A program made the position numbers and the translations under genes. DNA of 64,000 nucleotides from an uncultured virus (IMG/VR IMGVR_UViG_3300048911_000077). Lineage: Duplodnaviria; Heunggongvirae; Uroviricota; Caudoviricetes. Within the stretch, counting starts at the first letter, position 1; each line of letters begins with the position of its first letter. Below are positions 10,415 to 59,533 of the stretch, piece after piece. Where the stretch lies: IMG/VR virus record IMGVR_UViG_3300048911_000077. One strand, 5' to 3'. The notes beneath the pieces were generated by a model that was not told the DNA's origin, made no database searches, and saw only the letters and a list, made by a program, of their open reading frames with translations.

Positions 10415-12114
10415 TTAGCGATTAAATGGATTTTTAGTTGAGAGGTCAGCAGTTACTAAACCACCAAGAAAATTACCAATATGTATTTTCTGTGCTAATG
10501 TAATGAATGAGTCACTAGTTGCATCAACTTGGTCATCCTTCACAGCGCGGGTTCCATCGAAGCCTTCCATCTCTGAGAAATAAGCATCATTCCATGCACC
10601 GCGAACATAACGAACAAGGCCCGCTTCCGATGCCGAAACTACTGGTTGAAACCGTACAACCTTAGACTTATTAGATGGGCGCATTCTTGCGAAAAGACCT
10701 TCAGAAATAAGTTCTTTAATCATCATTTGTCCAGCAGCTTTACCTGCCTGGCCCGGCTCTTGTGGAATAATGATTTGAGTACCATCGGGGTCATCTAAGC
10801 CCGTCTCTACAATGCGCTGCATTACCTCTCCAAATCTTGCCCTAAATCGAACAACATCTAGAATGATATATAGACCTTCTTTTGTTTTCCCCATTAAAAC
10901 GCCAGCAGTCCAGTCAGGATTTGGCAACGCTTCACAAGGTAAACTTCCGGCAATATCCCATGCACGACAATATTGAACAATATTTAAATCATATTCATTT
11001 ACGGGCTCACCCAGCCACTCCGCTTTCCAAAATCCTGCGGCATCCTCACGAATATCCCAGTTCCCGTAAAGGTCGCGCTCCTTTTTTACGCGCTTGAGAC
11101 CTTGGAGGTTTGCAAGATATCCGGGGTTGGATTTAATAAGTGGGGGATTATCGTAGATTGTGGCTGAAATAAACTGTAGAGACAGTGGACGACAATGTTG
11201 TTTTTCATCTGTGTCCGGTAAAATATTACCTTCACCATCTCTGTTGCCGTATATCTCTAGGAGTTCCTCTTTCGTGTCTGCCCAAATCATGTCACCAGCG
11301 ATTCGAATAAACCAACGAACTTTACCATCCCGTTCGGGGTCGGGCCGACCTTCGTTTTCTTCTCCTTTTGGAATAATCCACCAATCAATCCAACGTCTCA
11401 GAAAAGAGTCAGGTGAAGGGTTACAAGTCAGGAAAAGATTGGGAACCATCTTTGCTTTAGAACGCAAACGAGATAATACAACCAATGTATGGTCTTCGGT
11501 TATCTGAGTGGCTTCATCTATCATCGCCCCGGAAATTTGGAGGCCACGAAATTTCTCTGCATCTTCGTCAGTTTCCAAGTGAGACATTGCAATAATGGCT
11601 CCGCTTGGAAACGTAAAGGTCATAGCCTTTTTATTAATTTTTACTTTGGGATCAAACGCTTTATATAAACTAGTGGCTTCGTCAAACAAACCAGAAGCTT
11701 TCATCAAAGTTGTTTGATTTTTACGGATAATGAATCCACGATACTGAGGATCGTCAACCCAGCGGAGATGTCGTAACAAACCACAATAGGATTTGCCACC
11801 ACCCATAGCCTTTTAGTTATAGAGTTCGTTAAACTCTCTCCACGCTAGCGGAGGATCGGACTATATCTTCTACTTTCGTAGCCCCCCGTTTCGATTGCAC
11901 TTGCAACCTACTCGCTTACATTCATCAGCGTTAGTCTCTACACGTTCCCTTTCGGGCTTCGCTCGGTATTGCCCACGTCTTTACGTTTGGGTTTCACCGA
12001 ATTAGAGGGGTTTTAAATGGAGGCGCTAAGCTCACCACCATATACAATGATATTACTATTACTCGCCAAAAACCAGCTCTGCTTGCGCGAAGCTGGCTGG
12101 AAACTATAATCCAT
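10415..12114 (-). CDS. terL: Terminase large subunit, two exons (12114..12034 and 11809..10415), 491 aa after splicing
   Basis: Splicing restores Walker A YGG|AMGGGKS; Walker B MIDEA; TCNP; nuclease RAWDIA and DDQVDA. Confidence 0.92.
11810..12033 (-). ncRNA. ORF-less group I intron (224 nt) in terL
   Basis: Exon 1 ends in U pairing with guide GCC; P7 elements GAGACTA and AAGATATAGTC; terminal G; P10 UAGC/GCUA; splicing restores frame. Confidence 0.92.
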
Positions 12115-15337: not shown

Positions 15338-15368
15338 GGGTGGGTCCAGTAAGATTTGAACTTACGAC
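15338..15368 (-). pseudogene. Orphan 3' half of a tRNA (T-arm plus acceptor 3' strand)
   Basis: GTAAG-TTCAAAT-CTTAC-TGGACCC-A-CCC on minus; overlaps the stop codon of the HNH gene. Confidence 0.65.
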
Positions 15369-16090
15369 AAATTACAAACCCTTATATCTTCTACTGAAAG
15401 GTCGCCATAGTCTAACTCCCAGTGACAGTTAGGACATAAGAATATAATGTTTTCGGGTTTATTGCATTCCCAAACACTTTCTGATTTATCAAAATCAGTA
15501 ATTGCCTTTATATGACAAAGCTCAACATGCTTTGAGTAACCGCAATTTGCACAAGAACAACTTTTACCAAAAGTGTTATAGAAATTATGTGCTTTATCTC
15601 TAATAGCTCGGTATTTATTTTGTTCAGTATATCTAGACATCTCACCAATTGAAGTGTTCTTCATCTGATTGGTAGACCTACAAATAAAATTACAGAAATT
15701 TCCCTTTCTGCTCTTTTTGTCAGATTCAAATGAACAATTACACTCTAAGCAAACCTTTATAACTATGTCGGGTTTGCTATTTTTAGCTTGATCTTTCCTT
15801 GAAGAATTATAACAAGACTTCGAACAAAACTTAGCTTCACAAGTTTTATCTATAAACTCAATATTGCAGAATTCACAAGAAATAGTTTTATAGTCTCTTA
15901 AATCTCTCGTATAGGGAATTAGTCCTGCATATAAAATGGCTGAATTAAATGAGCCAAAATATCTGACGAAAGTATTTTTACCGACTAATATTTCTGGGTA
16001 CTTTTTACAGTCTCTGCCAGTGGGATTCCTATTATATATTTCAACAAAATCCAGCAGTTTCTGTTTAAGTATTTCTTTAGTGTATTTCAT
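15362..16090 (-). CDS. HNH homing endonuclease with Zn-ribbon repeats
   Basis: Start re-assigned to MKYTKE (16090); RYFGSFNSAI..AGL repeat, several CxxC, ELCHIK...N...LCPNCHWELD. Confidence 0.85.
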   Translation of the reverse strand: MKYTKEILKQKLLDFVEIYNRNPTGRDCKKYPEILVGKNTFVRYFGSFNSAILYAGLIPYTRDLRDYKTISCEFCNIEFIDKTCEAKFCSKSCYNSSRKDQAKNSKPDIVIKVCLECNCSFESDKKSRKGNFCNFICRSTNQMKNTSIGEMSRYTEQNKYRAIRDKAHNFYNTFGKSCSCANCGYSKHVELCHIKAITDFDKSESVWECNKPENIIFLCPNCHWELDYGDLSVEDIRVCNLS

Positions 16091-16096
16091 AGAATT

Positions 16097-16186
16097 TGGG
16101 GGAACAGGCGAGAATTGCACTCGCAACGGTCAAAAGACTTCCACTTATGAGGTGGATGCCAGCAAACTAATACTGGCGTCTGTTCC
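16097..16186 (-). tRNA. Non-canonical tRNA with CAT anticodon (Met/Ile2-like)
   Basis: GGAACAG/CTGTTCC acceptor, TCCAC-CTCATAA-GTGGA anticodon arm, GCGAG-TGCAATT-CTCGC T arm, encoded CCA. Confidence 0.8.
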
Positions 16187-17005: not shown

Positions 17006-17221
17006 TTTCTAAATAATCCTGATCAGACCACTGACATTATTGTTAAAGAACAACAAGATTATTTAGAAAGAACACTCACTAAGCGAAGGAGAGAACGCCG
17101 CAAGTGTTCGAAAGATCTATTGGAGGAGAGGAGGACAATAGATCTTTAAGTGCTGTCGTAAGGAGAGGAAATGACAGCGTGAATACCACAATCTTTTTAG
17201 ACTTAATCTTAGTGATTGTGG
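17006..17221. ncRNA. Five-hairpin RNA candidate; three central loops carry AGGAGAG (+) / CUCUCCU (-)
   Basis: Stems at 17006-17069, 17070-17109, 17111-17147, 17152-17178, 17186-17221; intergenic. Confidence 0.7.
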
Positions 17222-17566: not shown

Positions 17567-17617
17567 TCAGGATCTTCAGTTTTGGCGAAGTTGCCACTTA
17601 CAAGCCTGCTGCTTGTT

Positions 17618-17700
17618 TGGAGGATGAGATGGGGTACGATCCCACATTTACAGTTCCAATTACCCGTAGCTCTTTAGAAGAAAGCTGGGACTACTCATCC
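17618..17700 (-). tRNA. tRNA-like RNA lacking a normal D arm, TCT (Arg) anticodon-like loop
   Basis: GGATGAG/CTCATCC acceptor plus T-CCA; GTGGG-ATCGTAC-CCCAT T arm; AGCTTT-CTTCTAA-AGAGCT. Confidence 0.7.
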
Positions 17701-18029
17701 AGAATAAAATGATGCTGACTTGTATGTTGATTTAAATATATTCAACAGCCAGTGTTAGCATCAGAATTCATTGCTCCCCGTCACACTAACAAGGAAGACT
17801 TTAAACTCTCGTCAGAATTCTTAAAGCCCCTTAAAGGGAATTAGACAATCTTCGTCAAGATTGAATGTGTTCACAAATAAATTAAAGACAATTAAAACCA
17901 CTTTATCCGCACACTGGCTGGACCTTGTTACAGGTAGGGAAGACAACCTTAAAACTAAAAGGGATCAGAAGTCTTTTTACTTCAACTTCACATCACCCAA
18001 TCTCAATTTAACAAGAACAGGGTAAATCA

Positions 18030-18285
18030 ATATGAAGGTGCTCCGCGATTGCCTCAATGACAACTCTCCCGAAGGCTTTAGTGATATCAAGGCTCTAAAG
18101 CATTTGATATATTAGCTGAATAATACCACCTTATGTCAGCGTCACACATACTCAGCCGAAGCATCTTTTGTAATATGTGAACCTTAAGCCTTGCTCTCAC
18201 CCTACCGACGAACATATAGAAATCGCTAGAGTTGTGCCATATCACCAAGGCTTTCCGCCCAACGACCACGCGTTCTCGGACTTGT
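18030..18285 (-). ncRNA. Multi-pseudoknot structured RNA candidate
   Basis: Five perfect long-range complementary pairs, two UUCG loops, upstream TTGACT promoter-like element at ~18291-18320. Confidence 0.65.
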
Positions 18286-18344
18286 ATTACTATGTTATAG
18301 TATAATGTCTCAAAAGTCAAGCATTTGCTATAATAATATTAAAT

Positions 18345-56855: not shown

Positions 56856-59533
56856 ATGGTTGACATTACGTGGGACATTGAAGGTACAGGTCTTTTAAAC
56901 AGTGAGACAATCGACTATAAATCCAGTCCTTACAAACTAAAGGATAACTTTAAGTTCCACTCTATTGTCGTTGAAGACCACGAGACAGGGGAGCTTACTG
57001 CCTTTTATGATGGCCCGGAATATGTCTTTGATGGTCAGGAGTATTCTGAGGTTGTAGGTGATCAGACATATGTTCTGAAAGACTACGAACCAATCAGTTA
57101 CACCCGTAGAGTATTGTCAGATTTCCCAGAGTTTGTTAAAACTACGAGCTTGAATAAAATTGTATGTCATAATCAGATCAACTTCGATCTATTGGCATGT
57201 AAGTTGTATTACGGAATGGACTATGAAGTTGAACCTGATTTGTGGTGTGGTAACAAAGTAATTTTTGAGGATACTCTTGTAATCAGCAAGGCACTTAACC
57301 CAGATCGTTTGGGCGGACATAGCTTGGATGCATTGTCTGAGAAGACAGGTATTCGCAAGATTGCGTTCCGTAAACATCTAGGAACAGATGTACGATTTAA
57401 ACACTTTGCTGCTGACATGCTCTACTACAACATTTACGATGTAAAAGCCAACACTCAAGTTTATAAAATGTTGGAAGTTGAAAAAGGTGATTGGGATTGG
57501 TCAGACGCCATTAGTCTTGAAAAGTCTGTAGCGGAGATTATCACTCGACAAGAGCACCGTGGCTTTGACTTCAAGACAGAACGTGCTATTGAACTTGTTC
57601 GTGATTTGGATATCAAGCTTGAAGCTTTGCGTAGTGAAGTAGAACCTGTCTTACCTCCTAAACCGTTGGCAAAGACACGAATGGATTTCTACACACCTAG
57701 TGAAAAGCAGTTCAAGAAGTCTGGTGAACTGAATGAAAATATTAAGAAGTTTGTAGCTAAACACGAAGGAACAATTAATGAAGACAATGTTGCAACAATC
57801 TTTGGTAAAGAATATCCTCTGCCAATGCCTGCTGTACCATTGGTTACTGAAGTTCCTTCGACTTTGAAAGATACGACACACATTAAGGAGTGGCTGGTTT
57901 CTAAGTTTGGCTGGAATCCTTCAGCGTGGAAGGAGCGGGATTTAACTTGTGACGCTAAGAAGAATCGTCTTAGCCAAGAGAAGTTTGAAGCAGCAGTAGA
58001 GCGATATGTTGAACAGACATTGGCAAGCCCTTTTTGTAAATATCGTCTTGAGCATTTGAACCTTAATAAATCAAATATTAAGGCTAAGTTGTTGGCAAAA
58101 GGGTGTGCAAAAAGCTTTAAAGTGCTGACTAACCCTACGCTGACGGTAGGGCAGGAGAAAGAGATTTGCCCCGGACTTATTGCACTAGAAAGTAGTTTTC
58201 CTCACGCAAGAAAGCTTGCTGACTTCCTTACTTATAGCCATCGGCGTAACAGCATTCTTGGTGGTGGGTATGATCCTGAAGAAGATGACGATGAACACGA
58301 AAGTGGGTTTATGCCTAACGTTCGGGAAGATGGTCGTATTCCAACACCAGCAGACACTTGTGGAGCTGGGACGAGCCGCTTCAAACATCGTTTGGTAGCA
58401 AACATTCCCCGTAATTCCTCGCTTTATGGGGAAGAAATGCGTAGTTTGTTTGGAGTTGGTAAAGGATATGTGCAGCTAGGCTATGATTTCGACAGCTTGG
58501 AAGCTAAGATTGAAAGCCATTATGTATACCGCTATAAAGGAGGTCCAGAATATGGTATTAGCTTAACAGCAGAGAAGCCTAATGATTGTCACTCTGTACT
58601 TGCTCGCCGTATTACAGAAATCCTTGGGAGAGAGTTTCCGCGTAACAGTGCAAAATCTGTGAAGTACGGTTGTAGCTACAATGCACAAGTAGCACGGGTA
58701 GCTAAAATTGTTGGATGTGATATTCCAACAGCACAAATCATCTTTGATGAGTTTTGGACCTTGGCGAATCCTCTGAAAGAACTGAAAGACCGTATGCAGC
58801 AGTATTGGGAGACAACAGGTCAGAAGAAGTTCTTGATTGGTATTGACAAGCGAAAGCTTCCAATTCGGTCAAAGGGTAATGTGATCAATACAGCATTCCA
58901 AAGCGCTGGTGTAATCTGTGCAAAGCGTGCGATGGTTATTCATGATCGTAAGCTTAAGTCTGAAGGCATGTCTGTAGACTTCTTTAAAGATGATTGGAAA
59001 AGTAAAAAGTACTGTCAACAAATGATTGCCTACCATAAATAATTGTGGCCTTGCATTGTGAAGTGCATTGAATAACCTGTTGAATTCGGGGAAAGCTAAA
59101 GCGTAAGCCATGCCAATCCCGAGCGAAGCCTAGAAATAGGAACGTGTAACGACTATCCCGTAAGGGAGTAGGATGCAAGCGCATTCGAAGCGGCAGGGGG
59201 CTCACAGAGTCCGTGATATAGTCTGATTCTCCGTGAAAGCGGAGTGAGTTTAGCGAACTCAATAACTGAATGGATGAGGCGCAATTAGAGTTGAGCAGAG
59301 AGCTTGTCAAATTCAAAATGTTTGACACAGAAAAAGAAGCTAAGCAGTTTTCTGAGGAAGGCAAAGTATGGAGTGATGTCGGACACGCTAAGGATGGTCG
59401 ATTCTTTCGTTCATGGTGTCGTGCAGGGGAGCTTGCAGCAGAGGCTGTAAAAGAAGCTGGACAGTACTACAAACTTAACGTAGAATTGACGGCAGGGTAT
59501 GTAATTGGTAGCGGCTGGGATAATTGTCACTAA
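56856..59533 (+). CDS. Family A DNA polymerase, two exons (56856..59036 and 59273..59533), 813 aa after splicing
   Basis: Exonuclease DIE / HNQINFD; motif A DFDSLE; motif B RNSAKSVKYG; motif C restored as AYH|DEAQ. Confidence 0.93.
59037..59272 (+). ncRNA. ORF-less group I intron (236 nt) in the DNA polymerase gene
   Basis: Exon CCAU pairs with GUGG (U-G splice site); P7 CGACTA / GATATAGTC; terminal G; in-frame HDE after splicing. Confidence 0.92.

Follow-up and report, generated by a model that had tools for sequence, protein, structure and literature searches.

What kind of molecule is encoded at positions 18285-18030 (minus strand) of an uncultivated phage, where a first-pass annotation had proposed one compact RNA held together by three mutually crossing long-range helices? 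The phage has a genome of ~90 kb, and the window, the whole stretch of 64,000 nucleotides that we analysed, includes its tRNA locus, in which this region lies. The window's large terminase is ~44% identical to those of cultured Pseudomonas phages and 48-100% identical to those of IMG/VR contigs, the complete ones among which measure ~84-94 kb; the host is probably Pseudomonas-like. An HNH nuclease gene precedes the region, and past it lies a gene that, judged by position, probably encodes the small terminase (Table 1). A tRNA cluster occupies the corresponding place in the cultured phage UAVern. The sole tRNA called in the window (Met, 90 nt; 16097-16186, minus) and the beginning of an HNH nuclease ORF (15362-16126, minus) overlap. 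A tRNA-like unit at 17615-17702 (minus) has a 7-bp acceptor stem, a T-arm, CCA and an odd middle part; ARAGORN does not call it, and it has homologues at loci L037 and L069. At 17006-17221 (minus) there is a weak Rfam ar14 match with homologues in many relatives.

We find that the region is a structured, non-coding RNA at the head of a cassette, behind a sigma-70-like promoter. Promoter-grade sites number 22 in 5.5 kb against 15.8 in shuffles, which makes the match weak by itself; under a strict scan, a similar promoter lies 19-40 nt upstream of the first RNA module (module I, below) in 7 of 19 members. The transcript probably starts near 18285. Promoter and homologue pairing thus agree with the annotation's view of a structured RNA heading a transcript. 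Set against that view was a 77-aa ORF (18087..18320, minus), with purifying selection on it as the outcome to look for. We considered this frame as a gene and rejected it: it is open in 0 of 18 homologues, each of which has 2-12 stops. Although the frame runs open from 18320 to 18087, its start codon falls inside the promoter's -35 hexamer and module I has length variants of 2 nt and 5 nt, so that a protein-coding region with incidental pairings is a wildly improbable account.

Table 1 Coordinates of the features discussed (positions refer to the window unless a locus is named).
Feature	Position	Strand	Evidence or remark
HNH nuclease gene	19264-18473	-	Upstream neighbour of the region
Sigma-70-like promoter TTGACT, 17 nt, TAACAT	18292..18320	-	9/12 consensus matches
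Module I, ~70-nt RNA: predicted P1 closing an H-type pseudoknot (P2 crossing P3), UGAGA junction	18186..18254	-	Alignments A2, A4; models R1, R2
Module I P1, 5' strand	18246..18253 (with 18193-18186)	-	7/8 pairs with two-sided changes, 11 sequences
Module I P2, 5' strand	18237..18242 (with 18219-18214)	-	6 pairs, 100% of cells paired, 5 two-sided, 15 sequences
Module I P3, 5' strand	18223..18232 (with 18208-18199)	-	10 pairs, 99.3% of cells paired, 5 two-sided
UGAGA junction between P3 and P1	18195..18199	-	Candidate T-loop (lonepair triloop)
Module II	18080..18182	-	A5 (4 sequences): 97.3% of cells paired over 37 pairs, 8 of them two-sided
Module II long hairpin, kink-turn-like internal loop, UUCG cap	18182-18141	-	A5
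Module II hairpin, loop in two pseudoknots	18140-18115	-	A5
Module II pseudoknot strands	18126-18121 with 18114-18109; 18130-18127 with 18083-18080	-	A5
Module II third hairpin, between pseudoknots	18108-18086	-	A5
Module III (tentative): UUCG stem and hairpin 18064-18059 with 18053-18048	18035..18079	-	Homologues L036, L066 only
Module IV	17985-17875	-	Conserved non-coding; 2 other sources of 55
Module V	17872-17760	-	Highly conserved non-coding; 7 other sources of 55; also in RNA-run contigs
Gene past the region	16887-16477	-	PHROGs: unnamed family only
RNA module in which module I can nest, empty	L002:7011-7100; L037:4588-4695	n/a	Conserved; first hairpin empty
RNA module in which module I can nest, filled	L060:7490-7645; L068:7456-7613	n/a	First hairpin carries module I

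Is this RNA held by the long-range helices? All five helices in the annotation are perfect Watson-Crick on the minus strand: the closing helix AAGCCTTG/CAAGGCTT, the mutually crossing A/A' (18245-18239 with 18087-18081), B/B' (18235-18228 with 18067-18060) and C/C' (18226-18221 with 18050-18045), and AAGGT/ACCTT (18185-18181 with 18039-18035). The letters of the GCTTTAG/CTAAAGC pair (18101/18075) and of both UUCG stems are present too. When every mutually crossing triple with a total of 21 bp or more is counted, 44 of 1000 dinucleotide shuffles contain one, and so do 100 of 996 stretches of 256 nt taken from the genome itself. With spans fitted to the observed triple the counts fall to 0/1000 and 0/996, under limits that are post hoc, cut to that triple. 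Scanning every position of the 64 kb returned one case at the fitted cut (the observed triple itself); widening the spans by 10 nt raised this to 6, and lowering the total to 18 bp raised it to 25. The triple is therefore what the extreme of a chance distribution looks like once the limits are set after the event.

Homologues separate what is conserved from what is not. Searching up to 300 nt downstream (only 183, 168 and 287 nt for L028, L034 and L108) and setting aside L011, whose insertion shifts the columns, we found perfect complements of A in one of 18 homologues, of B in none and of C in none; none has all three, even with G-U pairs permitted. The closing helix and the first UUCG stem are backed by homologues and the other helices are not: AAGGT/ACCTT is broken in L028, L108 and L036, and the GCTTTAG/CTAAAGC hairpin in L028 and L108, so we discard both as structure. 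Compensatory changes, which the annotation had asked of homologues, are missing from the crossing pairs, and segments A, B and C vary with local partners instead. A overlaps P2 of module I, B and C overlap P3, A' is used locally as part of the last hairpin and a pseudoknot strand of module II, and B' and C' sit in the local hairpin of module III.

These observations bear on whether a single ~250-nt RNA with three mutually crossing helices forms at all, possibly as a genome-specific alternative fold. Every pair is perfect, the tight triple is absent from the 1000 shuffles at its fitted cut, and as isolated duplexes A/A' and C/C' (-5.6 each) are stronger than local P2 (-2.0), with B/B' (-8.9) near local P3 (-9.3, computed with its 3' strand one base off register). 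Yet each segment pairs locally with a partner that is conserved or covaries, and the halves come apart: L028 has B and C identical with their partners absent from the 183 nt downstream, L066 carries modules I and III but has mismatches in B and C, L037 retains module I without the 3' half, and L036 (genome G002) keeps only A', B' and C'. With no homologue holding all three helices, we consider such a fold highly improbable. The whole region (261 nt) folds with a z of only -0.73, and one RNA held by three long-range helices fails as a conserved structure. Perfect long-range complements in one genome can arise by chance between neighbouring modules.

What homologues do support is a smaller unit. 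Covariation predicts that module I folds independently, with P1 closing around an H-type pseudoknot and a conserved UGAGA junction; P1 is the closing helix that the annotation had already recognised, with two-sided changes at seven of its eight pairs. An alignment of 11 sequences gave 22 pairs with 92.6% of cells paired and 12 two-sided, a result that 0 of 500 shuffles reached. Across 15 distinct sequences that include a divergent subtype, 240 of 241 cells of the 17 core pairs are paired and 11 pairs are two-sided, compared with 22-52% paired in slid controls; the cells count sequences, not independent events. Two-sided changes occur in both crossing helices, P2 and P3, and in both subtypes. 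The middle of P3 has a short form and a long form. Module I has a folding z of -2.87, with 0 of 200 shuffles as low. Alignment A4 omits L011 (a hairpin in the first loop), L012 (a near copy of L006) and the later finds L060, L068, L138 and L142.

Conserved letters concentrate in outer P3, in the U-G after P2 and in the GUAGGGUGAGA stretch, which by eye is altered together with its partners in L060 and L068. In the UGAGA junction, U, G, G and A are invariant and the first A is kept in 15 of 16 rows of A4. These letters fit the UGNRA lonepair-triloop consensus as given in part of PMC2258182, and the junction is a candidate T-loop.

Module II is likewise predicted to fold independently, as a kink-turn-like hairpin followed by a double pseudoknot. 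Its two-sided pairs are distributed two to each pseudoknot and four to the third hairpin, a thin count of four sequences from two lineages only; distant copies in L027 and L118 fit by eye and stand outside it. A kink-turn consists of tandem G-A pairs next to a short bulge, between two stems. The letters GA and UGA with an A-rich bulge are kept in the window, L036, L028, L108, L027 and L118, and we take the internal loop to be kink-turn-like by that consensus. Module III remains tentative, with homologues in 2 of 55 sources and a folding z of -0.55. At L006:8790-8875, L012 and L018, a further conserved module shows apparent crossing helices and compensatory changes by eye.

How are these modules distributed? 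We gathered loci by means of two terminase proteins and pattern scans. The loose pattern scans gave false loci in 4 of 11 cases (L030-L033), 4 of 15 (L116, L117, L121, L125) and 1 of 9 (L139), and in another such scan 27 of the 28 tested loci were false. The first 70 nt of the region were found in 21 other records (19 + 2). Module I is single-copy and occurs in 14 of 36 records and in 10 of 18 near-complete ones, a set enriched for carriers; it is absent from all 4 near-complete records of a separate set. L036 and L037 have terminases 100% identical to that of the window. In L037 the 70-nt unit is followed by another RNA. In L036/G002, modules II-III (18186-18030) lie at ~95% identity directly behind a promoter of their own, and the genome, which is 100% complete, has no module I anywhere. 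Patchiness despite an identical terminase indicates that module I is dispensable, as counter-defence cargo tends to be.

The position of module I varies as well: it can be first after the promoter, after stop codons, in the middle, last (L118) or nested. In L060 and L068 it is inserted in a hairpin of another RNA, and this hairpin is empty in L002 and L037. In L113, an unrelated Jedunavirus-like contig with 68% identity to Jedunavirus in its primase, it lies between the primase stop and a terminator; in cultured JD001 the terminator directly follows the primase, with no insert. A 205-nt wastewater metatranscriptome contig covers exactly 18186-18254 with 2 differences and then continues into a different module, and this different neighbour is another sign of modularity. 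The contig is a weak hint of expression, as it shows neither start, strand nor level and could derive from DNA. Taken together, we are confident that a non-coding transcript with several RNAs comes from the tRNA locus, that 18285-18030 forms its head and contains independent modules, and equally that whole modules are acquired, lost, put in another order or nested.

Do the modules belong to a known RNA class? Rfam returned no match for modules I-III or their homologues; it also missed the true toxI repeats used as a control, so that its silence is weak evidence for short pseudoknots. The annotation had recognised no group I, RNase P or tmRNA core at 18030-18285, and Rfam and ARAGORN agree: the two group I intron matches that Rfam gives for the window lie elsewhere, at 11837-12099 (minus) and 59026-59245 (plus), beside large terminase and DNA polymerase frames, and ARAGORN found no tmRNA. 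No blastn match in cultured phages was obtained for the region or for the L113 copy, and model R2 found nothing in UAVern, COT4, JD001, KpV79 or phiTE. No description of the motif appears in the literature searched, including the available portions of PMC10879173, PMC12197685 and PMC10690425; the supplementary files of the last, as far as available, contain no match for the motif letters or contig ids, and the motif may be among its unnamed candidates. To judge from these searches, modules I-III are small RNA modules of undescribed kinds.

Among comparable RNAs, GOLLD and ROOL RNAs have a tRNA link, and the species 1 and 2 RNAs of T4 are structured phage RNAs near tRNA genes. GOLLD and ROOL, characterised in the partial sources available as structured phage RNAs of unknown function, are far larger than modules I-III, which are small and shuffled and have no Rfam match.

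The annotation proposed a ribozyme-like or scaffold ncRNA, with a self-cleavage or tRNA-processing assay as a check. Module I could in principle represent a new ribozyme class with self-cleaving or processing activity, cutting the cassette into single RNAs or altering its 5' end: its size, nested pseudoknot and invariant junction bases would suit a small ribozyme, and it often comes first after a promoter or right after a stop codon. Theta (HDV-like) ribozymes of gut phages are likewise small pseudoknotted RNAs in phage tRNA regions, with a nested double pseudoknot, a catalytic C in J4/2 and a tie to tRNA 3' ends (PMC10879173, in part). Module I differs from them in helix order, which is not HDV-like, having one pseudoknot inside P1, and in the loci examined it does not sit directly 3' of a tRNA gene but follows promoters, stop codons and other ncRNA modules. 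Module II has a helix order that we take to be HDV-like; unlike HDV-like ribozymes it has no P3, and where they carry the C its final junction has AT or AG. L036 has 7 tRNAs yet no module I, whereas L066 and L113 carry module I where no tRNA is called. Given also its capacity to nest in another RNA's hairpin and the lack of an Rfam ribozyme match, we think a ribozyme unlikely; patchy and untied to tRNA ends, module I does not favour the tRNA-processing idea.

Could module I be a riboswitch-like aptamer instead, one that works in trans to soak up a small molecule of nucleotide type, which would intercalate at UGAGA? Aptamers are commonly built as a pseudoknot within a closing stem, a plan that module I and the c-di-GMP-II riboswitch share. 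Module I is also portable through P1 alone, and has no fixed downstream gene. Like module I, the TPP riboswitch has a UGAGA junction on the 3' side of a helix, and in that riboswitch the junction takes up the pyrimidine ring of the ligand (PMC2258182, in part). UGAGA loops nevertheless more often accept a base of the same RNA or of a tRNA, according in part to that source and in part to general background. Module I differs from TPP and c-di-GMP-II riboswitches in having no Rfam riboswitch match, no expression platform and no fixed downstream gene, and none of their other conserved elements was seen in it; the TPP riboswitch model gave no match up to E 10, and no regulated gene lies downstream. 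We accordingly rate an aptamer as improbable.

A structural role in cis is another reading. Compact knots can block nucleases, and modules often at the head of a transcript might act as stabilisers or folding insulators, shielding the tRNAs and small RNAs of the cassette from host or phage nucleases. Against this, module I may be first, middle, last or nested, its invariant loop bases exceed what a steric block needs, and the L113 copy stands between just a primase gene and a terminator. This too seems an unlikely explanation.

The contents of the cassette in two relatives point elsewhere. L066:1794-1830 (plus) and L118:251-287 (plus) each hold a ToxI-like single unit near-identical to toxI repeats upstream of annotated ToxN/AbiQ genes on plasmids of Pseudomonas putida (pGRT1) and Enterobacter. 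A profile of host toxI repeats and the phiTE pseudo-ToxI recovered them at E 2.4e-5 (L066) and E 0.0014 (L118) in 984,670 bases, and the L118 unit carries a two-sided change in its first stem. Going by this resemblance, both are likely pseudo-ToxI, and both records also carry module I. Phage phiTE escapes ToxIN by such mimicry (PMC3475682, in part). In phiTE (L129:190-330), the annotated pseudo-ToxI appears by eye to have tRNA-like letters on either side, as if it lay in a tRNA remnant. The toxI profile found no mimic in the window's own cassette (best E 10).

Module I itself lacks defining marks of such an antitoxin. The phiTE pseudo-ToxI is also a phage-encoded, small, pseudoknotted accessory ncRNA and serves as a model for the cassette (PMC3475682, in part), with near-identical ToxI mimics in the same cassette of L066 and L118, but modules I-III share no sequence with toxI, and module I is twice as long, single-copy and paired at its ends where antitoxins have single-stranded ends. 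It does share one type III feature, a central H-type pseudoknot whose helices P2 and P3 cross and covary. The single-stranded toxin-binding flanks are absent, the flanks forming P1 (PMC13682666, in part), and there are no tandem repeats before a ToxN, CptN or TenpN gene, each record holding one copy. The toxI model has no match on module I, and there is no plasmid match. Similarly, cptI and tenpI have an H-type pseudoknot core of similar length, together with single-stranded flanks, a one-base L1, a long A-rich L2 and repeats before the toxin gene (PMC13682666, in part), all of which module I does without; this difference is drawn from their description, toxI being the only family compared as sequences. 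Module I thus fails the features of type III antitoxins as set out in part in PMC13682666 and PMC12283969, and it may act in a decoy-like manner without belonging to that family. A second short, ToxI-sized, knot-like motif occurs at L027:1841, L034 (minus), L060:7860, L062:1880, L138 and L142; plasmid and E. coli blastn gave only chance matches for it (L027), and it could mimic another type III antitoxin.

By association, the presence of antitoxin mimics in a cassette that is shuffled and dispensable suggests that its other compact RNAs are baits as well. The modules would be transcribed from an early host-type promoter, each would show a host protein a surface of constant three-dimensional shape, and that protein, most likely an anti-phage component, would be soaked up as pseudo-ToxI soaks up ToxN. 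Consistent with this are covariation in both crossing helices, the separable halves, patchiness, mobility and the ToxI mimics that two relatives carry in their cassettes. Searches for a host counterpart of modules I-III came back empty: one GTDB pattern scan had 0 matches and another had 2, both unrelated and one of them adjoining 16S rRNA-like sequence, and blastn against plasmids and E. coli gave short chance matches or none for modules I-III; a diverged host counterpart may exist. Our estimate for the decoy function draws on the cassette neighbours only. We infer expression in infection, the T-loop, a binding partner and an anti-defence effect from sequence and comparison. That the modules are accessory, trans-acting decoy RNAs against host defence is therefore put forward tentatively, as somewhat short of an even chance; the architecture and decoy function taken together form our best explanation, one that comes close to even.

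Very few cases of phage counter-defence by RNA are known. In the present phage group, small structured RNAs are numerous and are exchanged as units, and some of them are recognisable antitoxin mimics. Module I, with 70 nt and a structure fixed by covariation, travels between unrelated phages and can be synthesised and tested directly. If the modules are decoys, the cassette would amount to a bait list for the host proteins that phages fight with RNA. More doubtful is a reading in which these phages keep an interchangeable stock of small RNAs with tertiary structure, equivalent at the RNA level to clusters of anti-defence proteins, and in which module I is a portable RNA that disables a host immune protein or immune signal purely through its shape, without any host RNA resembling it in sequence. 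Were this true, each module would mark a component of host defence whose blocking by RNA is not yet known.
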